From positions 91,305 through 155,304 of IMG/VR virus record IMGVR_UViG_3300031949_000001: DNA of 64,000 bases; one strand, 5' to 3'. The position numbers and the translations under genes are program-made. Source of the stretch: a virus. Its lineage: Duplodnaviria > Heunggongvirae > Uroviricota > Caudoviricetes. Of this stretch, positions 3,289 to 22,251 are shown piece by piece; positions within the stretch are counted from its first letter, which is position 1; every line of letters begins with the position of its first letter. The notes beneath the pieces were generated by a model. That model had not been told where the DNA came from. It made no database searches and worked only from the letters and a program-made list of their open reading frames with translations.

Positions 3289-3858
3289 TTATATTTTTGG
3301 TTTATTTACTCGGAGAACAAATCGTATCTCCTGACAGACCCCAGGAATGGATTTCATTTTGATTTCTGCTGTCTTATCGCTCCAACCTTCGATCACTGAT
3401 ATTTGTGCCCAATAAGGGTCTGGAATATAATTCAACTCTTCCATTTTGAAGTCTACGTCAATCATCAGTCCAAGTTTGCTTTCTGAACCTTTGTTTTTGA
3501 GATCATTGAGGTTTCTATCTTTGTCGAACATAGCGAGACCTACTGGTGTGACTATTCGGCAATGTGTTGGGTCGTGTGCAAAGTTTTCATGCATCCAGTG
3601 AGGGACATTGATAAAAAGTTTGGCATCGTGTTTACAAATTCGGTATAGTTCTTTTATGATTTGAAGATAGGTCTTGCTATCGTTTCCGAGATGTTCCAAG
3701 ACATGATCCATATAGATCTCGCTGATAGAGTTATTTTCCCACGGATAAGGAAATTTTTCTAGATCATGGAGCACGTCTGGATTACACATGGGAAAATTGT
3801 CCACATTAGTGCAATTGTGCTTGTGGTTGAAGCCACACCCAAGGTTAAGTTTTTCCAT
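3289..3858 (-). CDS. class I SAM-dependent methyltransferase (Methyltransf_11-like)
   Basis: LNLGCG motif I, HVLEHL, ELYRICK, DPTH. Confidence 0.8.
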   Translation of the reverse strand: MEKLNLGCGFNHKHNCTNVDNFPMCNPDVLHDLEKFPYPWENNSISEIYMDHVLEHLGNDSKTYLQIIKELYRICKHDAKLFINVPHWMHENFAHDPTHCRIVTPVGLAMFDKDRNLNDLKNKGSESKLGLMIDVDFKMEELNYIPDPYWAQISVIEGWSDKTAEIKMKSIPGVCQEIRFVLRVNKPKI

Positions 3859-5218
3859 TTTTGATGTCCTGTTCGATCCAGTTATAGCAATTTTGAATTG
3901 CCTCGTCCCAATTATCGAAGCTGGTTTGTCTGAATATTCTTATGGTGGGATACCAGATCGATGTATCTTTTAGTTCTGCCCAAGGAAAGTATGGCACGAA
4001 CGGGGCTATTAGGCAAACCTTCTTACCCATTGCAGCAGCGGCATGTGTTATAGATGTACAACTTGTGACGATGTAATCCATGTTTGCCATATATCCAAGA
4101 GTGTCTTCCCATGTCTGTAAGTCGTCTCTTAAATCAACTAATGGATCACCGATGCGAAGATCATCGAAATCACCATCGCGTTGTAGAGAATAGAGCTTAC
4201 CGAGAGTTGCGAATTTCAATAGTTTACGTGCTGGGATGGTTCTAAATTGTTCATGTTCAAACATTGGATTACCCGACCAACGAATACCAATCTTGAGAAT
4301 TGGCTCATCTATGTTCCGTCTTTTTTCCAATATCTTTTCAGGTAATGGCTCGATATACGTCATATTCGAGACAATGGGATCATTCAGTTTTAAAAGATTG
4401 ACACTGTTCATGCTTGGGAGGTAATAGTCGTAATCCCATTTTTTGACTTCTTCGATGGTACCGACGCGATCAACAAATGGAAGTCGTGAAAAGACCGACA
4501 CTAGATGAGGGCTACATCCTACGTTAACAATAGCACCCCTTTCTTTTAACATCTGTGCAAAACGAACGAAAATGATTTCATCACCCTGACCACCTTCGCA
4601 CGCAAAAAAGATGGTTTTTCCCTTTATGACCGTGGTGGTTTTCATTCTTTTGTATCGTGGTAAATCAAATAAATGTTCAGATCCCCAAGCACGTTCTTTA
4701 TTCCCATGTGCGAGATATTCAAATCCCTTTAAAAATTCACCACATCGTAATGTATGCCATCCTAAATTGAAGAGAGTTATATTACTATCCTGATCGAGTG
4801 TTTTTAACAACTCATGGGCTTCATCCATTCTACCAGCGTGATCTAAAAGAACAACCAATGTTAGACCTAAATCAGTTTCAGCTACTGGGTCTTCTATGTC
4901 CTTCCAAAGATTTTCGGCAATCTCAAGTGCCTCAGGTATTCGACGCAAATAGTACAAGACCAATGCGTAATTTTTTTGAAGTTCTGGAGGGAAAAAACCG
5001 AGTTTATCTCGTATATTTTCGACAAAGAGTGCTGATTGTTTATATTCATGGAGATGATAATACGAACCTGCTACCATATTAGCGAGTTCAACATTTGTTG
5101 GTTGAGATAGAAGAGCCAAAATGCCGAGTTCTTTCGCTGCTCGAAATTGTCCGTTATCGAATAGGTATTTTACTGGTTCAACAGGAATGACGACTGATTT
5201 TTGGTCTGGTGTTGGCAT
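3845..5218 (-). CDS. TPR-domain GT-B glycosyltransferase (family 9-like)
   Basis: Helical TPR-like N-half; EGGQGDEIIFVRF, IGIRWSGNP, YSLQ, DYIVTSCTSITHAAAAMG, WYPTIRIFRQ; CATAAATA at 5247-5254. Confidence 0.8.
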   Translation of the reverse strand: MPTPDQKSVVIPVEPVKYLFDNGQFRAAKELGILALLSQPTNVELANMVAGSYYHLHEYKQSALFVENIRDKLGFFPPELQKNYALVLYYLRRIPEALEIAENLWKDIEDPVAETDLGLTLVVLLDHAGRMDEAHELLKTLDQDSNITLFNLGWHTLRCGEFLKGFEYLAHGNKERAWGSEHLFDLPRYKRMKTTTVIKGKTIFFACEGGQGDEIIFVRFAQMLKERGAIVNVGCSPHLVSVFSRLPFVDRVGTIEEVKKWDYDYYLPSMNSVNLLKLNDPIVSNMTYIEPLPEKILEKRRNIDEPILKIGIRWSGNPMFEHEQFRTIPARKLLKFATLGKLYSLQRDGDFDDLRIGDPLVDLRDDLQTWEDTLGYMANMDYIVTSCTSITHAAAAMGKKVCLIAPFVPYFPWAELKDTSIWYPTIRIFRQTSFDNWDEAIQNCYNWIEQDIKNGKT

Positions 5219-5269: not shown

Positions 5270-6409
5270 TTATTTCTTACCAAGAACAACGACATTACTA
5301 CTCGAAATTGCTTGCCATGTCCCTGTAGGTATCAATATTGGCGAAGAAACCGCAGAAGCTGTTGTGCCTTGAGATAATTGAGCACCGGTATTATCACCCC
5401 ATCCCCAAAGGGTGTTATCGGATTTAATACCAAAGGTAGAAGTTACCCCACATGATACAAAAATCCATATTCCAGCAACTTGAGTTGGTGATGAACGATT
5501 GACTATGTCACCAAGTCCAAGTTGTCCACTAGTGTTAGTTCCCCACATCCAAAGACTACCATCTAGTTTAATTGCTGCGCCGTGTCCACCAAATGAAATT
5601 TGTGCCCACGTTCCTGTAAGTTGAACCGGCACACTGAGCACCGCCGCCGTGCTGGTTCCATCACCCCTTGATCCGTTCTCACCACGTCCAAATGCCCACA
5701 TCGTATTGTCATTTTTAAGAAGAATGAACGTGCCGACGTTGTTCGTGCCAGCCGGTTCACCACCTTCAATTCGTTTCCAACCAGTAGCGCTTAGAAATAA
5801 TATAGGCGATGAGACTAGTCCAAAAGGAGTATTTCCAACTCCCCATACCTGACCATCTGCTCTGATCATCATTGCTTGTAAGTTACCAGAACCTGTGACA
5901 ACAAATTCTTTTGTCCATGCTCCTGATATTTGAACAGGAGATGATCTTGGAGTTGTGCTACCTTGTCCCAAAACTCCACTACCACCAGCACCCCATGCCC
6001 AAAGTGTGTTATTTGACTTTAAAGCATAGGTTACGCCTGTTGTAGAATTTTCAGTCAGGGTTCTAACGCGCAACCATGATCCAGTCACTTGTACAGGAGA
6101 TGACCTAATAACAACGTCACCAACTCCAAGTTGTCCAACGATATTGTTACCCCACATCCATAATGTATTATCTGATTTGATCCCCCCACCAAAGCCAGAG
6201 CCTGCGGATACTTGGTTCCACTCACCAGCAATTAAGTTTGGTGATGAAAAAAGTGTTCCTGATGAACTTCCAATACCAAGAGCACCGGAAGTATTATTTC
6301 CCCATGAATATAATCCTGTGTTTATGAACAACGGATCATATATAGGAGCCGTACCGTCAAGTAGTGCGTTTTCTATATCTTCGATGAATATTGGCCTTTG
6401 TAGAGACAT
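5270..6409 (-). CDS. RCC1/BLIP-II-type beta-propeller repeat protein
   Basis: About 7 repeats of IKSDNTLWxWGxNxxGQLGxG...RSSPVQ. Confidence 0.85.
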   Translation of the reverse strand: MSLQRPIFIEDIENALLDGTAPIYDPLFINTGLYSWGNNTSGALGIGSSSGTLFSSPNLIAGEWNQVSAGSGFGGGIKSDNTLWMWGNNIVGQLGVGDVVIRSSPVQVTGSWLRVRTLTENSTTGVTYALKSNNTLWAWGAGGSGVLGQGSTTPRSSPVQISGAWTKEFVVTGSGNLQAMMIRADGQVWGVGNTPFGLVSSPILFLSATGWKRIEGGEPAGTNNVGTFILLKNDNTMWAFGRGENGSRGDGTSTAAVLSVPVQLTGTWAQISFGGHGAAIKLDGSLWMWGTNTSGQLGLGDIVNRSSPTQVAGIWIFVSCGVTSTFGIKSDNTLWGWGDNTGAQLSQGTTASAVSSPILIPTGTWQAISSSNVVVLGKK

Positions 6410-10287: not shown

Positions 10288-13200
10288 TTAGGTTTTAAAC
10301 ACTAAAAATTCGATTCGTGCGCTGAGCGCAGGCGTATAAGTAAACGTGATTGAACTTTGAATCGAACCATATGTGCCATCTTCCGTAAAGTCGTCGTCCA
10401 AAAATTGCTTGATACCGTTAACGAATATCCATACTCTATTTAGACCCTTGGTGTATTCCAATCCTGGTTGTGATAAAGTAAATCTGAAGTCATCAAATAC
10501 AACGTTGTTTAATGAAGCGAATAATGGGTTGGCTCCGCTATCGGCAATCACGATTGTCGAATTCGAACCACCTCCAGCAAACGTGCTTGAAATTCTAATT
10601 CTACCGTTTACAAGTTCTGCTTCCGCAGGCGAAATATCGGCGTTAAGTTGGGTAACCAAGGTCGTGAATGTTTGTGCTGTTGAACCTATAATGGAAACTG
10701 GTGTTGTCACGCCATCAACGAACACTGTTGCTGTGTAAACTGTCGCATCATTGGCGAGTCCTGTTGTGTCCGCGCCAGCAATATCAATTTCGTCGCCTAG
10801 TAACGAAAAGGAAACTTCTTGGAAACCAAAACCAGCATCAAATCCAGCAATGGTAAGACTGTGTCCAAGCACGTATTGCACGGTAACACCATCTGCGGAA
10901 ATTACATCACGAGCAATAAGCGTATCCGTCCAGAATTTTGTTACGATATCGAAGTCATTGACTGGTTGAAATTCGTATGAAATGCTACCATCAGGTATAC
11001 CCGGAGTCGTAGAAAAAGGAATTGTTTCAACGACCGTAATGGTTGTTACCTTGGAACTATCATTGAATGAAGAAGACAAGATAGTATACGTTCCATTGTT
11101 GCCAATAAAGGAATCATTTATGTCAAAAGTTACACCAGGAGTTAGGCTAGTCGTGAAATCACCACCACCAATTGTAAATTCACTCGTTCCTGAATCTGCG
11201 GTAATGATAGGAACGTTGACCAATAATTGTGCTGACCCGGATACTGTAGGTCCAGATAGGTTGCTGACTGGTGTTACTGGTGTTGAACGTGGATTGACCG
11301 TAAATGAAGCCAGAACTTCTGTTGGACGATTTGTGACATTGATCGTATCAAATCCAGTTAAAGCAGTTGTTAAACTTATAGTTGGATAGCCACTAGGGAG
11401 TGTCCCACCAAAGCCTGGAACTGCGGCTGAGATGGTTGTGAAGTTCGTTAGCTGATTAAAAATGTTTCGTATGGTTGTCGTGCTGGTAAAACCAACGAAA
11501 CCCGTCAACGAAGAGAATAACGGATTTACGCCTGTGTCAACAATCAAGAGAGAAGACGTAAGACCAGTAGTTGCGCTCGTGATTGTGATGTTTCCACTTA
11601 TGAGTGCGGCTGTACCGTTTACAGTAATGGCTGCGTTGATCGTTCCGAGAAGATCATTGTATGTTTGATTCAAGCTACCAGTTGCGGAAATTGGATATCC
11701 AACACCATCAATTGTTACGGTAGCTGTATAGACGGTTGCATCGTTGGTTAGACCGGTAAGATCGGTTCCTATATGAGTACCGCCCGTATTAACCACATCA
11801 AATGCTGCGTCCAGGATCGCTATTGTCGATGAAGAACCTGTTGACTTACTTTGAATTGTCAACCAAGTGTCGTTATCTACCAATTGCGCCACCGCAAAAC
11901 CACCAAGTTGACCATTTAGGTCAGTGATTAATCCCAATCCTAATATGCTGAAATATTGATAGGTGAGTGTTGGGAAAACAGTGATGTATATTGGAGTACC
12001 ACCATCAACTGTTATGATCGTTGTGTATGCGTCCGGGTTAGTCAAGCCCGTCAAGTTTGTGTTCAATTGAGAAAGTGAGAAGTTGACTCGCTGATAACCT
12101 CCTGTTCCGAACAACCTATAGTACAAGTCTAGGTCGCTATTAGGTAGAATGAGGTATTGATCATCATCTGTTGAATGTAAATGTCCCATGTTTAAAATGA
12201 ACGGAACACCAGCGTTTGGACCAGTTTGTGTCAGATCTAAAGTTGATGTTGACGCCAAACCACCAGAAAATGTAAAGCTAGAAACATATGTGTCAGCACC
12301 AGGACCAGATACGGAATCTACATAAAACTTTGTCGCCGCATCTTGAGCAAGGGTAGGATCAGCCATATTTTTAATTTGGTTGAGACCCATGTTGATCGTA
12401 GCACCAACAAAGTTTACAATACCAGTTATTGTACCACCTGTTAGTTGCAAGTAACGACTATCACCTGTAGCCATGTTTAGCGCATCGGTTGCTACCGTTG
12501 CATTACCAAGGTTTGTAATCTTGTTACCAGTCATGTTCAGGATACCTGACATCGTATCACCAGCCTTCAGAACATGGAGAGCATCTTGACTATCAACATA
12601 AGTTTTTGTTGTGGCATCTGTGTTAAGTGTTGGAGTTCCAAGATTGATAATCTTGTTGAGACCCATATCAATTTGTCCAGTGCCGGTGAATTGAATGCCA
12701 GCGGTGCCACTGAAGACCAACAAGCCTGACATCGTGTCTCCAGCCTTCAGAACATGGAGAGCGTCTTGTGCATCGACATAGTTCTTGTTGGTGGCATCTG
12801 TACCAAGAGTTGGTGAGCCGAGATTGATAATCTTGAAGCCACCCATGTCTAGATCGCCAACTGGGGCACCGCTGAGTGAAATGGTATTCCAAATGGAGGC
12901 TTGAATATTTCCACCAGCCCCCTGGACCGCAGGTACGGATAGAACTGTGATGGTTGTGAATGCGGTGAATACTGCGGAGATAACGTTGTATATTCCATCG
13001 TTCGCTACGGTACCAGTGACAACGAACGTGTTTCCTATCGGGAACGAAGCCACTTGGTTACCAGCAACAACGAATGTGTTGGTTGAATTACTTGCTGATA
13101 GAATGGGGAAATCTCTCGGAGAAAAAACGTACAAACCAGCTATTGTCGGATCAGTCGGATTTGATGGATCGAGAAAGCTTGCATTTTTGAACCAAATTTG

Positions 13201-13458
13201 ACCTTGAATCGGAAAAGCTGGACGAACATTGTTGGCAAAATGTTCGATCATGTTGACAAGGTTTTGATCTGTACGAGAGCCGTAATTTGGGTGTCCGCGT
13301 CCATAAAGCAATAAACTGGTATGACTTGCAGAGGCATCAATGTCCAAAGTAGGCGTAGAAGGCGCTACTGGTCCGTCCGTCCTAAAAGCCGGTAAAATAA
13401 AAGCTAGTTTAGTCGGGTCAGTAAAATTAATTGTGTAGTTTGGATTTGGCAACGGCAT
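10288..13458 (-). CDS. long tail fibre-like protein (1056 aa)
   Basis: Same N-terminal module; DATxKxYVD / GDTMSG fibre repeats; three TGLxNxxxxYT repeats; GATAAATA at 13498-13505. Confidence 0.75.
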   Translation of the reverse strand: MPLPNPNYTINFTDPTKLAFILPAFRTDGPVAPSTPTLDIDASASHTSLLLYGRGHPNYGSRTDQNLVNMIEHFANNVRPAFPIQGQIWFKNASFLDPSNPTDPTIAGLYVFSPRDFPILSASNSTNTFVVAGNQVASFPIGNTFVVTGTVANDGIYNVISAVFTAFTTITVLSVPAVQGAGGNIQASIWNTISLSGAPVGDLDMGGFKIINLGSPTLGTDATNKNYVDAQDALHVLKAGDTMSGLLVFSGTAGIQFTGTGQIDMGLNKIINLGTPTLNTDATTKTYVDSQDALHVLKAGDTMSGILNMTGNKITNLGNATVATDALNMATGDSRYLQLTGGTITGIVNFVGATINMGLNQIKNMADPTLAQDAATKFYVDSVSGPGADTYVSSFTFSGGLASTSTLDLTQTGPNAGVPFILNMGHLHSTDDDQYLILPNSDLDLYYRLFGTGGYQRVNFSLSQLNTNLTGLTNPDAYTTIITVDGGTPIYITVFPTLTYQYFSILGLGLITDLNGQLGGFAVAQLVDNDTWLTIQSKSTGSSSTIAILDAAFDVVNTGGTHIGTDLTGLTNDATVYTATVTIDGVGYPISATGSLNQTYNDLLGTINAAITVNGTAALISGNITITSATTGLTSSLLIVDTGVNPLFSSLTGFVGFTSTTTIRNIFNQLTNFTTISAAVPGFGGTLPSGYPTISLTTALTGFDTINVTNRPTEVLASFTVNPRSTPVTPVSNLSGPTVSGSAQLLVNVPIITADSGTSEFTIGGGDFTTSLTPGVTFDINDSFIGNNGTYTILSSSFNDSSKVTTITVVETIPFSTTPGIPDGSISYEFQPVNDFDIVTKFWTDTLIARDVISADGVTVQYVLGHSLTIAGFDAGFGFQEVSFSLLGDEIDIAGADTTGLANDATVYTATVFVDGVTTPVSIIGSTAQTFTTLVTQLNADISPAEAELVNGRIRISSTFAGGGSNSTIVIADSGANPLFASLNNVVFDDFRFTLSQPGLEYTKGLNRVWIFVNGIKQFLDDDFTEDGTYGSIQSSITFTYTPALSARIEFLVFKT
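12545..12852. repeat. imperfect tandem coding repeat, 180-bp period
   Basis: CCAGCCTTCAGAACATGGAGAGC and AGATTGATAATCTTG each recur 180 bp apart. Confidence 0.8.
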
Positions 13459-13521: not shown

Positions 13522-14907
13522 TCAGGCAGCAACAATAGGGATGAAACGGCTTTTTTTCTTCGGAATTACCAGATCCAATTCAGGAAATTTTGGGTAGGTT
13601 GGCTCGTGTGGACTCTTGATGCCACGTTCTAGCATCTCAATTTCGCTATTAAATAGTAGTTTAAAGGCTGTCTGTTGAATCTGCGAATAATGAACATACT
13701 CAACCGCATGGTTGGTATAGAAGACAGCCGATCCTAGATCTAGAGGACAGCTACTCTTGCACAATCTATAGACCGGACAGGTGCCGCAAAAGTCTTCTCT
13801 ATCCAGATTGATACCAACCAATTTGACGTTTTTGAGATCATTTATATGTCCACTAACATAATGATCGTCGGTATTTTGGCATGTACGAATATTTCCATTG
13901 ATGTCCATGGAAATCAAATCACTATCATCAACACCACAACTGGTCTTCAAAAGCGGAATTCTCTGTTGTTTTAACAGCTTTGTGTATGGTATAACGCCCA
14001 TTCCGGTATGGAAAAGACTGTTTGCCAGCAACTCACCATGCTTTACCGCTCCGATTTGCTTGAATTGAGCCAGATGGGCATCCAAATACGCCTTGAGAAT
14101 TACTTTATATTTCTCCAAATGTTCACCGCTAATGACGTGATGAGTTGAATTCTTAGCCATAGTTTCGTCGTAAACACGCCCAACTTCGTAGCTGATGGTA
14201 GTTTGCTTCAAACCATTCTTTTGAAAAAACTCATGGAAGAAATCATTTATTTTAAATAAATCATAATTTGTCTTGCTGATGACCGGATTGAAACTGAACT
14301 GTAGTTTAGGAAAACATTCATCCTGGATGCGTCTGAATACGTCAATCTTCTTGTGGATGAATTCCTTGCCTCGGGTTGATTCATGCGCGGGACCATCGTG
14401 GCTGATACCAAAGGCTGTTTTACCCTTCAACTGCATCAGGAAATCGATATGCTTTTGCATCAGTGGAGTGCCGTTGGTGGGTATGTACCACGTTAAACCC
14501 TCTCTATCAAATGCTTCCATGATTGGCATCATGTCTTTCCAATAGAGAAGCGTTTCACCACCCCAAAGTTCGATACGTTCTATCTTAGATAAATCGAAAT
14601 TTCCCCTCATATTTTTGATTAGAGCGGGCGTTAAACCGTTTGGTGGGCGCTCATTGGGGTTTCCAATGTCTTTTTGCATACAATAGCCGCAGCTATAGTT
14701 ACATCCATGACCAAGGGTGATCTTAATTAGATGAGGATGATTGCTTTTTACGTTGGTGCGGAACTGACTATAGAGGTCTTCATAGTCGTCAGGAACCACA
14801 ATAGGAGAACTCAATGCTCGAAAGTCAGGATCGAGCAAGCCATTTGTCTCGTTATCATAGTAAAAATGTTCGCCCGTTCGGACGATTCTATACTTTGATA
14901 GGCTCAT
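13522..14907 (-). CDS. radical SAM/SPASM enzyme
   Basis: CNYSCGYC (CxxxCxxC), LWGGET, TNG, SHDG; C-terminal CGTCPVYRLCKSSC (Cx2Cx5Cx3C). Confidence 0.9.
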   Translation of the reverse strand: MSLSKYRIVRTGEHFYYDNETNGLLDPDFRALSSPIVVPDDYEDLYSQFRTNVKSNHPHLIKITLGHGCNYSCGYCMQKDIGNPNERPPNGLTPALIKNMRGNFDLSKIERIELWGGETLLYWKDMMPIMEAFDREGLTWYIPTNGTPLMQKHIDFLMQLKGKTAFGISHDGPAHESTRGKEFIHKKIDVFRRIQDECFPKLQFSFNPVISKTNYDLFKINDFFHEFFQKNGLKQTTISYEVGRVYDETMAKNSTHHVISGEHLEKYKVILKAYLDAHLAQFKQIGAVKHGELLANSLFHTGMGVIPYTKLLKQQRIPLLKTSCGVDDSDLISMDINGNIRTCQNTDDHYVSGHINDLKNVKLVGINLDREDFCGTCPVYRLCKSSCPLDLGSAVFYTNHAVEYVHYSQIQQTAFKLLFNSEIEMLERGIKSPHEPTYPKFPELDLVIPKKKSRFIPIVAA

Positions 14908-16090
14908 TGGTTCCTTTGAAGTTCTTGATTGGTATGTGTTTTAGTTTAATTTTCGGCTTTGTTGTGACTGAAACGATGGGAATCACAGTCCCGTTAAATT
15001 TTTGAGGTACTAGAAGTCCCAATTTATTCTCTACCGCATGTTTTTGGGCTAGCTTTTGGAACATTCGACTATATGGTTTGAGCATGAATTTCGGAATGAA
15101 ATTGTAATCGGGATGAATATTCACACTCGTGGTAATATAATTGTAATAATCCAGGTATTTATTTCCGCATGATCCAGCCATTCTCTCTACATTTTCACCA
15201 TACCAGTTGAGCTTTGCTTGGAGCATGAGTGGAATGAAGGTGATTGGATCAAACGGTTGATCTTCGATTGAAGCAAATGGTCTACCAGATTCTTCGATTG
15301 ACTCAACCAAAGTCAAGAAAAAATGGTCATATTGCATGTGCATGGCTTCACAGAGGATCAAAAACAAGAAACCACCTTGGCTGTACATCGTGGTGATTTG
15401 ATGATCTGCATTTTTAAGATCGTAGCGAATGTTCTTACTTTGAAGAATATCGTCATGTATGTCGGTATAAATGTCATTCTCTTTAGCCCAATCGATAGCT
15501 TTCGCTGTGTTAGGCTCAGCATCTCCTTGTCGTTGGCTGATGATGAACTTGATTTTTTGTATCGGTTGTTTAACGTGTACATCAGTCAATCGCGCTATAA
15601 TATCATCTACGAACCGTCCGTCCTTTCTGTTCAAGAATATATCACTGAGAGTGACTTCATACGTCTTAGAAAAGCTCATCTCTTTCATCAAAATTTCGTG
15701 TTGCTGGATCAATGCTGTATCCGTCATTGAAGAACTGTACATTCGGTGGCTGTTTCTCTTATAGAAATCGAAGATATGTGGATAGTTCTTTTTTATAAAA
15801 AATAAATCATCGAGAGATGCAGCTATATCAAAGTGATCCCATGTTTCGACTATTTTTTCTTCCATGATGGTTGGAATGTTAAGCGGAACGTATGCTCCAA
15901 AACTTTCATCCGGCATCCAATTTTTTTGAACATAACATAGTTTACATCCTGCCTTGCACATATATCGTTTGAAGATTGAGAACGACACTTGTGTATCGAG
16001 GTTGCACAGCGCATCGTTCTTCAAGAAGAACTCCTTGAAATTGCCTGTATCTTCGAAATTAGGGGCTGCCGCCCATGTAGGTTGCATCAT
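14888..16090 (-). CDS. divergent radical SAM-like protein without SPASM
   Basis: CKAGCKLCY (CxxxCxxC) near the N-terminus; no GGEP and no C-terminal Cys cluster. Confidence 0.65.
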   Translation of the reverse strand: MMQPTWAAAPNFEDTGNFKEFFLKNDALCNLDTQVSFSIFKRYMCKAGCKLCYVQKNWMPDESFGAYVPLNIPTIMEEKIVETWDHFDIAASLDDLFFIKKNYPHIFDFYKRNSHRMYSSSMTDTALIQQHEILMKEMSFSKTYEVTLSDIFLNRKDGRFVDDIIARLTDVHVKQPIQKIKFIISQRQGDAEPNTAKAIDWAKENDIYTDIHDDILQSKNIRYDLKNADHQITTMYSQGGFLFLILCEAMHMQYDHFFLTLVESIEESGRPFASIEDQPFDPITFIPLMLQAKLNWYGENVERMAGSCGNKYLDYYNYITTSVNIHPDYNFIPKFMLKPYSRMFQKLAQKHAVENKLGLLVPQKFNGTVIPIVSVTTKPKIKLKHIPIKNFKGTNEPIKV

Positions 16091-17196
16091 ATGCCGATCC
16101 AGTGTAATAAGGTTGGCTTTTCCTTGAGTTTTTGAGCGTGAAGAATGAGAATGTCAACCATTTTATAGAACTCAACGCATGAGTCTCCAGGTACTTGATC
16201 CCACATGTGGTATAGAAATTTGATACCACAGCTATTTCTCGAAGGACAAATCTTACATTTGTCGTGAATGAGTTGTTCTTCGCGCGCCGCCTCGTCTCTA
16301 TATACTTTTATCACAGGAGCACCACCCTCGTCAAATTCTCTTCGCCATTCACCGATAACAGTCTCGTGCTGTTGATACTCTAAAAAGTCATACTCTGGAT
16401 AGATGAATCCATCGGGAGACAGCACGAGTTGCTTATGATTGTCGTAGTAGTGCTTGTCTATACCATCACCGTGACCATCGACATTGACATCAATGCCTTG
16501 GATGTAGAGCATTTGGATGAATTTTAGGAAAGCGTGAAAGAACTGTTTCAAATCAGGAATCTCGTCAATCATTGATTTGAACTTTGTTTTACCACGTAAA
16601 TGACGCAGAGGAATTAAATCGACCTTACGAACGTTATGCTTGTTGCAAATATCTGTTATTGCTTTTAGATTTCGAAGGCTAAACGCCTCTTTGTGTTGAA
16701 CTGGAAGAACGTATTGAAGCTGGGTATTGCTTGTTTTGTGCTTTGTCAGGACCGCAAGGGCATCATGGATGTTGAAGTCTGTACGATTGATTGGTTGAAA
16801 GATAAAATCGTAGCTGATACTGATGTTCAAACGACTATTCCACTTCTCAAAGAACCATTCGTTTTTAGCTATACGGCTACCGTTGGTCTGAATGAATATT
16901 GGAAAGGTCTGTCCTGGAAATTCCAGTGTGATGGCGTCCATGATTTTATCGATCAATTTGATCCAAATCAATGGTTCTCCTCCATGAAAACTCAGCATCG
17001 GCACTGGAAATTGCCCATCCGTGCTCATTTGTTTCAGGAAATAGATGATGTGCGGAATGTCCGTTTCTTCTAGTTGCTGATTACCGATATCATTTTTGAT
17101 GAAATCTCGATCACAATATGTGCAATTGAAATTACAGGCATTGCCTAGATATATGCTAACATCGTTGCATCCTGGCAGCTTTGATATGTGTTCCAT
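16087..17196 (-). CDS. radical SAM enzyme with partial SPASM
   Basis: CNFNCTYC, FHGGEPL, QTNG; C-terminal CKICPSRNSC...C. Confidence 0.9.
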   Translation of the reverse strand: MEHISKLPGCNDVSIYLGNACNFNCTYCDRDFIKNDIGNQQLEETDIPHIIYFLKQMSTDGQFPVPMLSFHGGEPLIWIKLIDKIMDAITLEFPGQTFPIFIQTNGSRIAKNEWFFEKWNSRLNISISYDFIFQPINRTDFNIHDALAVLTKHKTSNTQLQYVLPVQHKEAFSLRNLKAITDICNKHNVRKVDLIPLRHLRGKTKFKSMIDEIPDLKQFFHAFLKFIQMLYIQGIDVNVDGHGDGIDKHYYDNHKQLVLSPDGFIYPEYDFLEYQQHETVIGEWRREFDEGGAPVIKVYRDEAAREEQLIHDKCKICPSRNSCGIKFLYHMWDQVPGDSCVEFYKMVDILILHAQKLKEKPTLLHWIGI

Positions 17197-17199
17197 GTG

Positions 17200-18948
17200 T
17201 TATAGTTTGACGATCTTCTTCCCGTGCAACTTGTCGTCAAGTTTCTCTCCTTTGTTGTTCAAGACAAGCATGTGTAGAAGAGCTAAGTAGAATACTTTTT
17301 TGTCAAGGGATAGCTCTGTAATTTGTTGGCTTGTTCTAACAGGAGTACCGTGAAGTTCACATAATTTTTCGTAGAATTCTTTGATGGTGAGTGGCGTCGC
17401 GTTACTCTCATTAATTTCACTTAGATAGTCACAAGCGCATGTAAGAGCCTTCTGATAACGATAGGTTTTGCCGCGCTCTTTTGCGAGTTCGTAAAATCGT
17501 CCCAAGATCAATTTGTAATCCGGGAGTTTATCGATGAATATGTCAACTTCACCGACTGGAATATGGAAACCTGTAATGTGTTTGTACATCAGATGGGAAA
17601 TAGCTTTGGCAAAGATAGGTTGTTCGCCCTTTTCGGCGACCGCTTCTACAAGATCTCTATGCTTCTTTTGGAATCCTTTTTTGACTAGATCGTTTTGAAG
17701 ATCCAAGAACAATTGTACAACCTTTTGACACATGTCATCTGGTCTAAACATACGACCAGAAGCGTCCATATTACCGGCTGGACACTGATAACAGAAGTTC
17801 TGAAGGTCACAAGTTTTGCATTGTTCTTCTACGATGAACATTTCTTTATATGCTTTTTGAAAGTGATCATAACGATCAATGTAAAGTTTGTCTTCGAAAA
17901 TGTTCCCAAGGATGGTATCTGCTGCTTTTTCCTTTTGATTAGTGAAGAAATAGCAACCAGAAAAGTCACCGGAGCCGTCAATTGCGATCATATCCGATCC
18001 AACCATACAGTTGTTCTCTTCCTTTACACCCACACCTTCTGCGAATTGAATCTCAAAGTCGTAGAAATTGTCAAGAATGTAAAGAATGTCGTGATGAAGT
18101 TTCTTCCATTCAGCTTCTGACCAATGAATGTAACCGTCACGCGAACTCATGGTCAATGGATGGACGACCATCGTACGGAGTCCTTTATCGAAAAGCTTGG
18201 ATACAAATTCGATTAGATATGGTGCATTCTCACGGGATAGCGTGCATCGAACACCAACCATATGATTATCTTTGAACGATTGCGGAATCAAGCCGATCAT
18301 GTCAATAATGTGGTCGATTCTATCTTGACCAATTTCGCGATGATCGACCTCTTCACGCATCGTATCTAGACTGATTGTCATGTTTACGAATTCGTAGTTG
18401 AAAAACTCTTCGATGAAATCTGGAGTCAATAAAAGACCGTTGGTAATCATACCGACGTGCTGACGATTCATGTTACCAATCAAGTAGTCTTTATACTTCT
18501 TCAAGAATCCGATTATGAGGTCTTTATGGATCAGAGGTTCACCACCGAAGAACTGGAATTTCTTTCCAGAATTTTCATTGATGTTCAATAGAAAATCGTA
18601 GGCTTTCAGAATAGATTCTTCTGTGAATCGACCATAGTCTTTTTTATGTTGTTCATAGCAATACGAGCATGATAGGTTGCAAGCGTTCGTTAAAATAGCG
18701 TTCATGTGTTGCAAGTCGGCAAACATGGTTGCGCGCATCTCTGTGATTGTGATGATCTTTTCGGTTGGCTTTGGAACTACGGAAATGAGACTGTTTTTCT
18801 TTTGAAAACCTTTTGGGGTTGTGATCATTTCGACAGAAATTTTTAACTGACCGTCACCCGTAGCAGATGCTGCGTGATCTTGAATACGTTCAAGCTGGGC
18901 GCTGTTAAGCTTTCGATATATCGATATCGGTTGTGCAACGGCATTCAT
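17200..18948 (-). CDS. radical SAM/SPASM peptide-maturase-like enzyme with helical C-terminal extension
   Basis: CNLSCSYC, FFGGEPL, ITNG; CMVG...GC...CKTCDLQNFCYQCPAG...C. Confidence 0.9.
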   Translation of the reverse strand: MNAVAQPISIYRKLNSAQLERIQDHAASATGDGQLKISVEMITTPKGFQKKNSLISVVPKPTEKIITITEMRATMFADLQHMNAILTNACNLSCSYCYEQHKKDYGRFTEESILKAYDFLLNINENSGKKFQFFGGEPLIHKDLIIGFLKKYKDYLIGNMNRQHVGMITNGLLLTPDFIEEFFNYEFVNMTISLDTMREEVDHREIGQDRIDHIIDMIGLIPQSFKDNHMVGVRCTLSRENAPYLIEFVSKLFDKGLRTMVVHPLTMSSRDGYIHWSEAEWKKLHHDILYILDNFYDFEIQFAEGVGVKEENNCMVGSDMIAIDGSGDFSGCYFFTNQKEKAADTILGNIFEDKLYIDRYDHFQKAYKEMFIVEEQCKTCDLQNFCYQCPAGNMDASGRMFRPDDMCQKVVQLFLDLQNDLVKKGFQKKHRDLVEAVAEKGEQPIFAKAISHLMYKHITGFHIPVGEVDIFIDKLPDYKLILGRFYELAKERGKTYRYQKALTCACDYLSEINESNATPLTIKEFYEKLCELHGTPVRTSQQITELSLDKKVFYLALLHMLVLNNKGEKLDDKLHGKKIVKL

Positions 18949-18958
18949 GTGTTGCCCT

Positions 18959-19882
18959 TTATGATTTTACGACTACGAATTCAAACTCCAGCTTTTCAGC
19001 CGGATCTACCATGTTGAAAAACTTGCCTGCGTCAATTGAATACTTGATGTATCCTATAGGTTTAGTGACTTGAACGCTAAGCTTATTTCCGTCCTGTGGA
19101 ATAACGGTTAGATCGCTTGAAATGGTAACTTCCAAGTTAGGAATTGTTCCTTCAGTAGCATGGTGTTTGAAAATAGTTCTACCGAACAAATCGATAGTGA
19201 ACTGATCGGTCGTGGCGATTAAAACGTTTGACCCGATTTTGATGACAGTGTCTCCAAATTCCGGTGCGAAGAAGTTCTCTTTTATGTGAGTTTTACTATC
19301 GAGGCGATATGTTATGTCATTTTTTTCATCTGTGTAATCGAGTCCATCAGAGAGTTTGACAAGGTTCGAATCGAGAATCATGTAATAAACCGAAAGAGGC
19401 TTCATTTTAACCATACCGAAAAGAGTCGTGATGAAGGTGACCTTTTGATTTTGGTTTGTGTTAATTGGTTCTTTGGTATCGTAGTCGATAAGAACATCAT
19501 TCTCATCACGAATTACATACTTTGCATTTTGGATGAGCGAGTAATCAACAACTAGATGACTGTCAGAGTAGAATCCGAATAATACGAAATCGTAACCCGA
19601 ATCAAGGATGCTCATCATCTTCTTGGTATCAATTGGTCTGAATGTGTCTTCGTTTTGAGTTGCTTGTGTAGGATCAACAGTAAAGTGAAATAAAGCAAGA
19701 GGTAATTCTGGTTTTGTTTCGGTCCGATTCCGACCAATACGAAGATTGAAATCCATGTGAGTATAGAACCCGACCTGTTGATCATAGTCTATCTTGTCAG
19801 CACGCATGTTTACGGTTTCCATTAAATCACGGAAAATGCTAGGTTTTGCGTCGCCTTCCTTTACAAAAATAAACGTCTTCAT
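18959..19882 (-). CDS. hypothetical protein in radical SAM operon
   Basis: 307 aa, TAATG-coupled to the upstream Cys-rich gene. Confidence 0.7.
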   Translation of the reverse strand: MKTFIFVKEGDAKPSIFRDLMETVNMRADKIDYDQQVGFYTHMDFNLRIGRNRTETKPELPLALFHFTVDPTQATQNEDTFRPIDTKKMMSILDSGYDFVLFGFYSDSHLVVDYSLIQNAKYVIRDENDVLIDYDTKEPINTNQNQKVTFITTLFGMVKMKPLSVYYMILDSNLVKLSDGLDYTDEKNDITYRLDSKTHIKENFFAPEFGDTVIKIGSNVLIATTDQFTIDLFGRTIFKHHATEGTIPNLEVTISSDLTVIPQDGNKLSVQVTKPIGYIKYSIDAGKFFNMVDPAEKLEFEFVVVKS

Positions 19883-20163
19883 TAAAGGGTTCCTCTAGTG
19901 CATGCGCAGTTACAGTTGCAGTTGCATGCTGTACTGTAATCGTCATAAAAGATGTGGGTATGGTCGATCAACTCATTCAACACGTCGAGCATTTGATTAA
20001 AGCTACTAGCGGTAGCATCATTTCCATCCACTCTATCTGCTGCGGGCGTTTGTTGCGGAGTGTATGTATTAACCGGAAAACCGGTTGTTGGATCAGCACC
20101 AGGAGGACTATCGGGTACTTTTGCGTTTGCCCCGGTTCTTGCCGGTCCTAATGTGTTCGACAT
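19882..20163 (-). CDS. putative radical SAM substrate/precursor with C-terminal (CX)n tail
   Basis: 93 aa ending STACNCNCNCACTRGTL; AGGA SD; upstream of four rSAM genes. Confidence 0.7.
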   Translation of the reverse strand: MSNTLGPARTGANAKVPDSPPGADPTTGFPVNTYTPQQTPAADRVDGNDATASSFNQMLDVLNELIDHTHIFYDDYSTACNCNCNCACTRGTL

Positions 20164-20172
20164 TTTTTATCC

Positions 20173-20646
20173 TTATGACGTTTGATCACTAATTTGATGC
20201 GAATGGGTTCGCACGAAATTGATCCCCTGATTTATTACATTGAAATCTGTGTTACTTAATTCACTACCCGGTGGACTTGTTGGAAGAACACCACCTGATA
20301 GTGGTGTAACGACAGTGACTGGACCAGGGGCACCTGTTATCGCAGTTGTAGACTTTGGGTTTGGTGTTCCGAAGGTACCACCACCATAAACTGGGAAGTT
20401 ACCAAAAGTGTCCACACCTCGCAAGTCTGGATAAGCGTGCGTGTGTAATCTATACGCATTGTAGATGCCTGCCAAAATTCGAAAGTGTACAGCCTCAATT
20501 ACATGACCAGCCACCACAACAGCTTTTAAAGTCAAAATCGCAGCCTTAAACCCAGCAATAGTCGCAGCCGCTGATCCACTTGGATATTGTGGTGGTGCTG
20601 CTGGAAATGTTATTGTTCCTGGAAGTGTTCTTTGTACTGTTGGCAT
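20173..20646 (-). CDS. HxH-motif protein related to the Cys-rich precursor
   Basis: Two copies of G-x7-F-x7-N-x4-H[ST]H-x3-D, which occurs once in 19882-20163. Confidence 0.7.
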   Translation of the reverse strand: MPTVQRTLPGTITFPAAPPQYPSGSAAATIAGFKAAILTLKAVVVAGHVIEAVHFRILAGIYNAYRLHTHAYPDLRGVDTFGNFPVYGGGTFGTPNPKSTTAITGAPGPVTVVTPLSGGVLPTSPPGSELSNTDFNVINQGINFVRTHSHQISDQTS

Positions 20647-20652
20647 ACTTCA

Positions 20653-20680
20653 ATTATCCACTTATTTCAACGGTTGTCAA
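20653..20680 (-). promoter_or_regulatory. sigma70-type promoter for the radical SAM operon, probably leaderless
   Basis: TTGACA-16-GATAAT, 6 nt before the ATG at 20646; no SD. Confidence 0.55.
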
Positions 20681-20688
20681 CATCTATC

Positions 20689-22251
20689 TTATGTGTAGAT
20701 TGCTGGATATACTTGTATCCAATCGGAACTGGTTGCGGCACCGCCGCCGATATGCGCTACAATCCAAATTTTACCAGTGACTGTGCCAATGTAAATGTTA
20801 CCTTGACCAAACGGTGTAATGTTGTCGCCTGTTGGACCTGGACCATTAGCATGGGTTCCCGTAAATGTATATGCTGCTGTCTGACCACCAGGAACCTGGA
20901 AGGTTGGAGTCACGAGAGGAGAAACTGCCTTTGAAATTTCAAGCAAAACGTAATTTCTCGTAGCCGCATCTTGTGCGAGAAGCGGATCGGTGACGCTTCG
21001 AATTAAGTTAGTTCCCATATCCATTGGGGCTGTGCCAGCACCAACGAAATTGAGTGAACCAGTCATTGTGTCGCCGATTATGTTTACGTATCTACCATCT
21101 GCGAATGATAATGTCATCGCATCTTGTGCCGCAAGCGGATCGGTGACATTAGTAATTCTGTGGCTTCCCATATCAAGGATGCCCGTCATTGGTGAATTTG
21201 CACCATCAATCTTGAGATATATGAGGTTTGCGGATGCGACGTTTAATCCACCAGTGCCATTAGCGAGATTACCATTAGCACCCGAACCAACTGGAATGGT
21301 GCTTGCTGTAACGGTAATGTTTGTGTCTGGACCACTGTTTGCAGAAGCAACAACCGTATATGCGATATTGGCGGCATTCAAAGAATTGTTATCAACGTAA
21401 ACTGTATCACCCACCGTAAACAAAGATTGATGATTTCCGGAAATCGTCCAAGCATTAGCAAGACCAATCGTAACTGCGACGATATTAAATGCAGTGTTCG
21501 CGAGATTTATGATGTTGTTTCCATTCATATTCAACGTTGTGTTCGCAACTGTCGTTTGAATAGGAACAAATGTGACACCATCCCAAACAGTTAGTATTGG
21601 TGGGACCGTAGAGTAATCAAAATAAACTTGACCGATAATTGGTGATGGTGGTTGCTGTGAGACTTCTACCTGTCCTGACGGAACTCCTTGAGCGACAGGG
21701 ACTGTAGGTGAATACACAGTTGATGTGATTTCGGTCTGATCTGTACCACTGTTCCAAAATGACGAAATTACTTGATATACACCATTATTTGCTGGAAAAG
21801 ATGAATCATTTCCAACAGCAAAATTCACGCCAGCGCTAAATGCCGTCGTTTGGTCTCCTGCAATATAGAGTTTGAGTGGTGCTAATGTAACTGCTAACAA
21901 ATTAAAGTTGAAAGAAATGACGTTACCTGGAGCTAGAGTCCAACCCGACGCCGTGAAAACCTTAAGTGTGCTTACTGCATAATCGAACCAAGTCTGACCA
22001 ATTGTTGGGAGCGTCGGTTCTATACCGTCACTTGCGAAATTTTCTAAGAGATGAACAAAGTTATCATCGATCATTTGCCCGTATCTAAGGGCACCTTGAC
22101 CAAAAAGGGTGAGGGATGTGTGGGCTTTTTCTGGATGAGGAGGTAGAACTAATAATTGATCCGGACCGTCGTGTTGCGCTGGCGCGATTGTGAAGGTCGT
22201 TTTTCCAGGCAACGTAGAGTCTGTGAATTGTATGGCGTATACTGAGGACAT
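20689..22251 (-). CDS. tail fibre-like protein
   Basis: YAIQFTD...TSLTLFGQG...LLENFA...GQTWFD module; DPLxAQDA repeats; GATAAATA at 22283-22290. Confidence 0.75.
   Translation of the reverse strand: MSSVYAIQFTDSTLPGKTTFTIAPAQHDGPDQLLVLPPHPEKAHTSLTLFGQGALRYGQMIDDNFVHLLENFASDGIEPTLPTIGQTWFDYAVSTLKVFTASGWTLAPGNVISFNFNLLAVTLAPLKLYIAGDQTTAFSAGVNFAVGNDSSFPANNGVYQVISSFWNSGTDQTEITSTVYSPTVPVAQGVPSGQVEVSQQPPSPIIGQVYFDYSTVPPILTVWDGVTFVPIQTTVANTTLNMNGNNIINLANTAFNIVAVTIGLANAWTISGNHQSLFTVGDTVYVDNNSLNAANIAYTVVASANSGPDTNITVTASTIPVGSGANGNLANGTGGLNVASANLIYLKIDGANSPMTGILDMGSHRITNVTDPLAAQDAMTLSFADGRYVNIIGDTMTGSLNFVGAGTAPMDMGTNLIRSVTDPLLAQDAATRNYVLLEISKAVSPLVTPTFQVPGGQTAAYTFTGTHANGPGPTGDNITPFGQGNIYIGTVTGKIWIVAHIGGGAATSSDWIQVYPAIYT

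Follow-up and report, generated by a model that had tools for sequence, protein, structure and literature searches.

Radical S-adenosylmethionine (SAM) enzymes with a SPASM extension are known to cross-link small secreted peptides and one dehydrogenase subunit. In the latter case, the radical SAM/SPASM enzyme QhpD introduces several Cys-to-Asp/Glu thioethers into QhpC, which is retained as a structural subunit. Phage fibre tips set host range and must endure outside the cell, and HxH metal sites are found in the trimeric fibres and spikes of phages, as in T4 gp37, T4 gp12 and P2 gpV; such a site is defined by a single Fe or Zn to which three chains each contribute an HxH motif. The metal-binding fold of the T4 short fibre is cited in the literature (PMC2938197), and the peptide maturase NxxcB makes a Cys-Asn β-thioether and accepts Asn, Ala, Gln or Asp as the acceptor (PMC9389541). 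Here we analyse a cluster of seven phage genes in which an array of radical SAM-type enzymes, a small Cys-rich protein and HxH motifs are found together within a tail-fibre operon. The cluster lies at positions 13,522 to 20,680 of a 64,000-nucleotide stretch of Caudoviricetes DNA (the window, by which we mean the whole stretch), which corresponds to positions 91,305 to 155,304 of the IMG/VR record IMGVR_UViG_3300031949_000001.

Radical SAM genes have been recorded in phage genomes before. The paper on Ralstonia phages RP12 and RP31 lists the genes of the corresponding cluster among "other genes" (PMC5468394), the papers on phages FLC6 and S13 list radical SAM genes without function, and Aeromonas phage 332-Vera has eight radical SAM genes in a structural cluster, which was termed highly unusual (PMC12390700). 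A literature search, outside whose reach most subscription journals lay, found no report that connects radical SAM enzymes with a fibre protein bearing a Cys tail. We propose, with a probability of roughly 0.6, that the cluster described here represents a giant-phage version of a system widespread among phages, whose tail-fibre module encodes a radical SAM/SPASM enzyme that modifies the C-terminal Cys ladder of a fibre or fibre-tip protein. Phages would thereby probably modify their host-binding fibre tip, most likely by cross-linking. The novelty would lie in the application of a known kind of reaction, the radical SAM/SPASM maturation of a Cys-rich substrate, to the phage fibre apparatus.

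Results

A Cysteine-Tailed Protein Adjoins the Enzyme Array in Related Loci

The seven genes all lie on the minus strand, with gaps or overlaps of −20 to +10 nt, in the order hxh157, pep93, u307, rS582, rS369, cx400 and rS461, and fibre genes stand on either side (Table 1). An initial annotation of the window, made from the DNA letters and their open reading frames (ORFs), had described seven co-oriented, tightly packed genes between fibre-like genes, a 93-residue protein with cysteines at positions 80, 82, 84, 86 and 88, and no recognisable peptidase or exporter in the cluster. This description is borne out: all seven ORFs are present on the minus strand at the coordinates given in Table 1, both flanking ORFs match PHROG tail-fibre families, the five cysteines are encoded by nt 19926-19900, and neither a peptidase nor an exporter is among the Pfam, NCBIfam and PHROG matches of the cluster.

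The presumed substrate, pep93, consists of a variable N-terminal part, one helix+HxHx3D module and the tail FYDDYSTA-CNCNCNCAC-TRGTL, its C-terminal end reading ACNCNCNCACTRGTL. A first search recovered 49 homologues of 65-94 residues, in which M58, L65, H68, H70, D74, D75, C84, C86, C88, R90 and G91 are invariant. The 38 C-terminal residues are near-invariant (F..ML.VL.EL..H.H.FYDDY.T.C.C.C...RG..), and this holds across enzyme divergence down to 41% identity. The ladder of the family follows C-[NED]-C-[NQ]-C plus at most two further x-C units, giving 3-5 cysteines in total, and the residues between successive cysteines are, in order, N/E/D, N/Q, N/Q/A and A/N/D. Across the whole 378,912-bp genome, CxCxCxC is confined to a single ORF and there are three occurrences of H[ST]Hx3D, each of them in one of the two small proteins pep93 and hxh157, so the pattern of the cluster goes beyond chance.

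We compared 30 related loci, comprising those of Ralstonia phages RP12/RP31, 26 IMG/VR contigs found by a search with rS582, one JGI contig reached by looking up a relative of hxh157, and two contigs of metagenome-assembled genomes (MAGs) that emerged when 185,579 species genomes were scanned. A pep gene lies directly upstream of the array in 30 of 30 loci, at enzyme identities of 41-63%, and the order is constant, namely pep (with u307 sometimes in between), rS582, rS369, cx400 and rS461. The initial annotation had asked whether Cys-tailed genes accompany radical SAM arrays in other phages, and they do; the opposite case, arrays without a linked (CX)n gene, was not encountered, since every one of the 30 arrays carries pep. 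As regards the features that serve to recognise clusters for ribosomally synthesised peptides with post-translational modifications (RiPPs), a small precursor gene adjoins the modifying enzymes in all 30 loci, and neither the window cluster nor the loci of its relatives yielded a match to a leader peptidase or an exporter. Among the 185,579 species genomes the array is present on 2 contigs, both from MAGs, and the system is restricted to phages.

The pep gene is easily overlooked. RP12 carries a 65-residue pep93 homologue ending ...HTHVFYDNYGSNCNCNCACTRGSL, which is unannotated and lies between the HxH gene ORF074 and ORF075 (L001:12008-12205, minus strand; AP017924.1, ~82,888-83,085). The same unannotated homologue is present in RP31, as seen from the DNA match and from the gap between ORF70 and ORF71; a DNA-level search of phage records gave a single 89-nt match, to RP12/RP31, over the ladder. 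The missing annotation in these two phages, like the finding that the sequencing runs listed for this DNA include no RNA data set, would suit the view that the small ORF is not a gene, or that its neighbours are unrelated morons with no joint function. Such a coincidence is highly improbable, however, given the 49 or more homologues with their near-invariant 38-residue C-terminus, the AAGGA Shine-Dalgarno sequence ahead of the pep93 start, the translational coupling at pep93 (whose stop overlaps the start of u307), the synteny across the 30 loci, and the recovery of this phage DNA from soil and freshwater-sediment metagenomes in several independent studies.

Cysteine Ladders Terminate Tail Fibres Encoded near rS461 Homologues

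Homologues of rS461 are also found in unrelated smaller phages, always within tail modules. In Achromobacter siphophage JWF, the genes are ordered central tail fibre J, gp027, the fibre gp028, gp029 and the radical SAM gene gp030, and gp028 (L032:4802-6253) contains a ladder reading ...NCNCDCNCNCSC. The gp028 sequence continues from ...RQNCNCDCNCNCSC immediately into a Hint domain (CFPAGTMVLMADG...), self-cleavage of which would leave the ladder as the mature C-terminus. In Ralstonia phage RSP15, the side tail fibre ends ...SNTNCQCGN and is followed by two unknown genes and then by the enzyme gene.

An unbiased scan of IMG/VR for DNA encoding CNCNCNC returned at least 120 stretches. We classed a ladder as real where the motif is in frame and at most 35 residues from the end of an ORF that is at least 100 residues long or of the pep type. 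By this definition, 44 of the 120 stretches listed carry real C-terminal ladders, with 33 distinct tails, and the loci of 36 of these 44 contain a radical SAM gene with a score of 60 bits or more, compared with 3 of the 76 others (Fisher p = 2e-19). These 76 are short or out-of-frame ORFs, and at least two of the three that bear an enzyme look like misclassified real cases; at the eight ladder loci without an enzyme, at most 3.4 kb of downstream sequence is present. Where the distance was measured (26 cases among the first 80 loci of the stretches listed), the enzyme gene lies 0.7-3.4 kb downstream on the same strand. Tail-fibre matches in PHROG were obtained for JWF gp028 and for four of the eight IMG/VR carriers tested, and some carriers have collagen-like repeats or an N-terminus of the JWF gp028 type. 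The ladder-bearing fibre proteins span 170-620 residues, and the simple fibre ladders end ...CNCNC, with no Arg.

The fibre-linked enzymes form one family, with mutual scores of 237-457 bits and the canonical seven-Cys SPASM pattern. JWF gp030 and the enzymes of loci L044 and L073 pass TIGR04085 (28.8-34.5 bits), and no NCBIfam equivalog covering the family was found. By sequence comparison, rS461 is the member of our cluster that is kin to this family: it is 27% identical to JWF gp030 over 90% of its length (E = 2e-27) and scores 101-124 bits against fibre-linked enzymes (JWF gp030, RSP15 ORF045 and IMG/VR members, six of them in addition to gp030), whereas rS582 and rS369 score 28-49 bits and do not belong with them.

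Homologies of pep93 Point to a Fibre-Associated Protein

The helix+HxH...D module of the pep family and the C-terminal one of the two modules in hxh157 are homologous (hhalign probability 92%, E = 6e-7). In P0050, a 210-residue pep relative, an extra domain is inserted between the N-terminus and the helix+HxH module, and this insert is 45% and 38% identical to repeats 553-657 and 894-1000, respectively, of the 1056-residue fibre encoded in the window. Another relative, P0051, has an apparent intein-like insert after CNCNCNC, recognised by reading its sequence, and a Pfam search did not confirm a Hint domain in this fusion. Such relationships speak for pep93 as a structural protein associated with the fibre and against a leader-core peptide. 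The predicted pep-hxh complex scored 0.50 against 0.03 for the best control. Of 80 solved complexes, 58 reached the mark, as did 2 of 110 mismatched pairs, and scores of 0.60 or lower include only 7 of those 80 solved complexes but both of the passing mismatches. With contact agreement of at least 52% and partner predicted local distance difference test (pLDDT) values of at least 48 in the complex runs, the modelling gives weak support to such a complex.

Proteins of 220-294 residues ending ...RRILQELVNRSHTEEYWKENSQCNCNCNCDCSDDSGGG were also observed (L043:6038-6700, L091 and L103). They have a helix, SHTE and a ladder arranged like the pep93 C-terminus, may represent an intermediate form, and have nearby radical SAM genes that are only weakly related.

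The hxh157 protein carries an HTH motif at residues 68-70 and an HSH motif at residues 148-150, and among 12-14 homologues H68, H70, D74, G82, H148, H150 and D154 are invariant. Its family comprises 267 cluster representatives (50% identity) at E ≤ 1e-3, and an Atlas feature search with hxh157 returned only viral, uncharacterised clusters. Longer members have a β-propeller or a Gly-rich domain between the two modules, or extra domains with a Hint domain appended, as expected of a scaffold into which binding-type domains are inserted. One Hint-fused member sits in the most closely related cluster, where fibre genes again occupy both flanks. Hint domains recur C-terminally in this material: after the ladder in JWF gp028, apparently in P0051, and in the HxH-family members P0147, P0179 and P0185, with P0185 alone passing the Pfam Hint-type cut-off. 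A cupin or metallo-β-lactamase reading of HxHx3D was considered and dropped, as the motif follows a helix and its second copy stands at the extreme C-terminus.

The third small protein, u307, adjoins pep in the loci where it is found. Its ten homologues align at 17-24% identity, with only N25, R125, Y166 and P207 invariant. An AlphaFold 2 model (pLDDT 78.7) has an immunoglobulin (Ig)-like sandwich at residues 199-307, for which fold searches gave generic Ig-like matches only (Foldseek E ≥ 1.6e-3; VIA Z ≤ 6.8), and the same searches gave none for the N-terminal part. Fast evolution, the lack of conserved catalytic-type residues and the Ig-like end would fit a structural partner or chaperone rather than an enzyme.

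Three Radical SAM Enzymes and a Divergent Fourth Protein

The initial annotation had named four CxxxCxxC proteins as radical SAM enzymes to be checked by profile searches, two of them with full SPASM Cys sets, one with a partial set and one with none. Three are confirmed as radical SAM enzymes by Pfam (PF04055), scoring 66.7 (rS582), 41.1 (rS461) and 34.5 bits (rS369) against a cut-off of 29.5, while cx400 matches no such profile and is recognised by its fold and motif only. We took as the SPASM pattern the seven cysteines of Cx9-15Gx4C ... Cx2Cx5Cx3C ... C. All seven are present in rS582, a partial set in rS369 and none in cx400, as had been noted; rS461 has six of the seven and not the full set. 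In terms of profiles, rS582 scores 19.5 bits against PF13186 (cut-off 21.5) and rS461 scores 23.7 bits against TIGR04085 (cut-off 27). The auxiliary cysteines of rS369 amount to CxxCx5C...C only (four cysteines), and this enzyme has no N-terminal extension.

The largest enzyme, rS582, has an 85-residue N-terminal extension, which aligns ahead of the CteB core, and a C-terminal extension. Its nearest solved structure is CteB (5WGG, E = 6e-19), and its top NCBIfam matches are thioether maturases, all below their cut-offs; the best is PapB (NF047865), at 118.4 bits against an equivalog cut-off of 340. The SCIFF maturase model (TIGR03974) is matched at 81.3 bits against 425, and pep93 is not SCIFF-like. 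No enzyme of the cluster belongs to a curated NCBIfam family, the PapB, SCIFF, CXXX-repeat, QhpD, anaerobic sulfatase maturase (anSME) and YhhB/XyeB models all being far below their cut-offs.

Searches with cx400 gave no Pfam, NCBIfam or PDB-sequence match, and a profile search of the sequences of solved structures gave chance matches only. The protein matches phrog_36229, and its family has no significant hhalign match to the rS369 family (probability 0.8%). Its CxAGCxxCY motif is invariant in ten homologues, and it has no auxiliary-cluster Cys. In the AlphaFold 2 model (pLDDT 80.4), the best 30 structural matches are all radical SAM enzymes, led by SuiB (Z 11.2, root-mean-square deviation 4.9, 254 aligned residues). 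On the predicted fold and the motif, on which the assignment rests as sequence and profiles give no match, cx400 is a very divergent radical-SAM-fold protein, and the cluster would hold four such folds.

The ladder could be mainly a metal or Fe-S site, or could undergo a change other than cross-linking, such as conversion of Cys to formylglycine, epimerisation or methylation, with the extra enzymes perhaps acting on hxh157 or on the fibres. HxH...D and CxCxC are indeed classical metal ligands, the pep tail C-x-C-x-R-G is close to the sulfatase motif C-x-[PA]-x-R, JWF gp030 is annotated as a sulfatase-maturating enzyme and the anSME models align to full length, if weakly, rS461 lacks the seventh SPASM Cys, and rS369 has weak NCBIfam matches to cyclophane-forming families. 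We nevertheless consider these alternatives unlikely. The anSME model gives 23-51 bits, where 349 would be needed (TIGR03942: rS461 23.4, JWF gp030 51.2), the sulfatase-type target C/S-x-P/A-x-R is not matched by the pep tail, which reads C-x-C-x-R, and no Arg follows the simple fibre ladders. Furthermore, the residues alternating with Cys are limited to N/D/E/Q/A, which fits their use as acceptors.

Genomic Setting

The source genome is a single contig of 378,912 bp with a G+C content of 41.5%, and it is a giant phage by gene content, with genes for a large terminase, a tail tube protein and helicases. The cluster is part of a co-oriented minus-strand gene run from 22251 to ~3289, several members of which are fibre-type proteins with a common N-terminus (Table 1). 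The sigma-70-like match ahead of hxh157 is the best of the 14 kb scanned, in which the total number of matches does not exceed that in shuffled sequences; its placement would give a nearly leaderless hxh157 transcript.

Table 1. Coordinates of the cluster, its elements and its flanking genes in the window
Feature	Position (nt)	Strand	Basis
Tail-fibre-like gene, 520 residues, upstream flank	20689-22251	−	PHROG tail/tail-fibre families phrog_1640, 26630 and 2710; N-terminus of the type of the other fibre genes of the operon
Sigma-70-like promoter match, TTGACA-16-GATAAT, 11/12	20653-20680	−	Consensus match only; ends 6 nt from the hxh157 ATG
hxh157, 157 residues, two helix+HxHx3D modules around a variable loop	20173-20646	−	Invariant residues in homologues
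pep93, 93 residues, presumed substrate	19882-20163	−	Homologue family, module homology, Shine-Dalgarno sequence
Cys ladder, Cys80/82/84/86/88 of pep93	19900-19926	−	ORF translation
u307, 307 residues, fast-evolving, predicted C-terminal Ig-like sandwich	18959-19882	−	Alignment and AlphaFold 2 model
rS582, 582 residues, radical SAM with 7-Cys SPASM pattern	17200-18948	−	Pfam, NCBIfam, solved-structure match
rS369, 369 residues, radical SAM with partial SPASM-like C-terminus (4 Cys)	16087-17196	−	Pfam, Cys pattern
cx400, 400 residues, divergent radical-SAM-fold protein	14888-16090	−	Predicted fold and invariant motif
rS461, 461 residues, radical SAM/SPASM, 6/7 SPASM Cys	13522-14907	−	Pfam and kinship to fibre-linked enzymes
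Tail-fibre gene, 1056 residues, downstream flank	10288-13458	−	PHROG tail-fibre families, phrog_2710 E = 1.8e-18

Several further genes were noted in this genome. The fibre operon includes RCC1-like repeat proteins (PHROG "regulator of chromosome condensation", E = 5e-35) at 5270-6409 on the minus strand, with an RCC1-like repeat protein likewise present in a related locus (L007:1314-6147), and it ends with two overlapping genes of 189 and 457 codons at 3289-5218, also on the minus strand. About 2-3 kb before the window, two tandem genes for A-type Fe-S carriers (PF01521, 64 and 33 bits) lie beside an ATP-grasp gene and an HNH endonuclease gene (L154:2276-3044; contig ~88,775-89,543), and the presence of two such genes in a phage fits a high demand for clusters. 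A 290-residue ORF with a CxxxCxxC motif (GPCNRACYFC) is found outside the window and far from the cluster, at 282897-283769 of the contig.

Discussion

The initial annotation had viewed the cluster as a RiPP-like multi-enzyme system whose product is either a fibre tip or an intracellular effector. Our analysis supports such a system and, of the two fates, favours the fibre tip, because the ladder terminates true fibres encoded beside an rS461 homologue, because P0050 contains a fibre repeat, and because the hxh family appears to be a scaffold. In the giant phage, the ladder is placed on a separate 93-residue protein, which would be tied to the fibre apparatus through the helix+HxH...D module that it has in common with hxh157, a putative element for metal binding and oligomerisation, comparable to the HxH sites in trimeric fibres. 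The four enzymes would act on the invariant tail HxH-x-F-Y-D-D-Y-S-T-x-C-x-C-x-C..., the ladder step probably being carried out by rS461. By analogy with CteB, PapB, QhpD and NxxcB, the most likely reaction is the joining of Cys sulfur to carbons of neighbouring Asn, Asp, Glu or Gln residues, forming thioethers. Each Cys has a candidate acceptor at −3, −1, +1 and +3, so the register of the links cannot be deduced from the sequence. The three additional enzymes probably add more cross-links, as the invariant HxH-FYDDY segment likewise suggests. The product would be a rigid knot, resistant to reduction and to protease, that could be made in the cytoplasm, whose reducing conditions preclude disulfides. 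Such a thioether knot would lend the fibre tip a stability like the one that secreted proteins gain from disulfides.

A more specific arrangement can be envisaged, to which we attach a tentative and rather low likelihood. Together, pep93 and hxh157 contain three helix+HxH...D modules, which could form a pseudo-trimeric, metal-capped stalk docked on the fibre, and the enzymes could weave the ladder and the FYDDY segment into thioethers, of an overlapping NxxC type, and C-C links. If so, this would be the first covalent knot made by radical enzymes in a virus particle, and a new multi-enzyme cross-link topology.

Several observations weigh against our proposal of a modified fibre tip. Modification has been observed in no member of the family. 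The number of ladder cysteines varies from 3 to 5 while the enzymes remain four, so the enzymes do not correspond one-to-one to cysteines, and the scores against thioether-maturase families are all far under the curated cut-offs. The association of 36 of 44 real ladders with an enzyme comes from a scan that includes near-duplicate contigs and whose class limits we chose ourselves. When the simple fibre-plus-enzyme loci were searched with hidden Markov models of u307 and hxh, no relatives were recovered; the two families are confined to the giant-phage form, which could therefore serve another end. Of ORF68-76, which include two fibre-like proteins, none appears among the 32 proteins listed for RP31 virions by mass spectrometry of gel bands; the pep homologue of RP31, being unannotated, could not have appeared there. 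Finally, relatives of the cluster often add a DUF3050/HamA-like diiron oxidase (haem-oxygenase-like), a class III aminotransferase or a B12-binding radical SAM protein (L002:15119-15874; L001:5096-5932; L029:14245-15006; L002:7573-8847; L022:6134-8185; L018:14665-16515), a set of accessory genes that looks like small-molecule or RiPP tailoring; the window genome has no DUF3050, aminotransferase or B12-radical SAM gene of this kind.

These last points would suit a conventional RiPP pathway, in which pep93 would be a leader-core precursor and its modified C-terminal peptide, once released, would have its role away from the particle: it might be an intracellular effector, serve as a redox or metal cofactor, or be an antimicrobial freed at lysis. 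The gene order, with SPASM enzymes coming after a small Cys-rich precursor, is that of RiPP clusters, the N-terminal extension of rS582 sits where CteB-type enzymes have their peptide-recognition domain, the oxidase, aminotransferase and B12-radical SAM genes of the relatives could be tailoring genes, the cluster proteins are not among the RP31 virion proteins listed, and the invariant core is reminiscent of PqqA and MftA, which are cofactor precursors. A released peptide is nevertheless distinctly unlikely in our view, as none of the loci examined contains a peptidase or exporter, the would-be leader holds the module in common with the two-module hxh157, whose family carries binding-type inserts, a fibre repeat is inserted in one pep relative (P0050), and the ladder forms the C-terminus of true fibres of 170-620 residues.

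If correct, the proposed modification of fibre tips would constitute a new class of post-translational modification of virions, made in the reducing cytoplasm, and would account for the radical SAM genes recorded in phage genomes with no function assigned, including those that one paper termed highly unusual. It would also provide RiPP enzymology with a large, phage-only enzyme family and a defined substrate motif. The expression and engineering of receptor-binding proteins would be affected, with misfolding possible where the maturase is missing. Achromobacter phage JWF and Ralstonia phages RSP15 and RP12/RP31 are culturable models of the system.

Among phages, the radical SAM genes of RP12/RP31, FLC6, S13 and 332-Vera and the fibre-linked gene of JWF are of the same kind as those described here, and no substrate or function is named for them in those reports. 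As in the T4 and P2 fibres, HxH is invariant in fibre-associated proteins; unlike in those sites, a helix precedes the motif here and an invariant Asp follows at +4, features seen at the level of sequence, and this helix+HxH...D module is not known from solved fibres. In the case of QhpD and QhpC, the gamma subunit of quinohemoprotein amine dehydrogenase, the target is likewise a small structural protein and there is a weak NCBIfam match, although the scores of 29-69 bits fall well short of the cut-off of 453, the partner proteins differ and no link to a dehydrogenase exists here. The streptococcal NxxcB/NxxcA pair has Cys and Asn in the NxxC register, and the ladder of pep93 amounts to three overlapping NxxC motifs; the acceptor tolerance of NxxcB, compared by description, matches the residues that alternate with Cys in the pep family. 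NxxcA is a secreted, quorum-regulated peptide with a single ring, whereas here a repeated ladder stands on a conserved phage protein. The pairs CteB/CteA (SCIFF) and PapB/PapA (freyrasin) are similar in that a full-SPASM radical SAM enzyme is encoded beside a small Cys-rich precursor, and the chemistry expected here, a thioether from Cys to a side-chain carbon, would be as in CteB and PapB. The present system differs from both in its scores (81 versus 425 and 118 versus 340 bits), in having four enzymes instead of one and neither peptidase nor exporter, and in being found only in phages, within a tail-fibre operon, with a ladder that in other phages is part of the fibres themselves.

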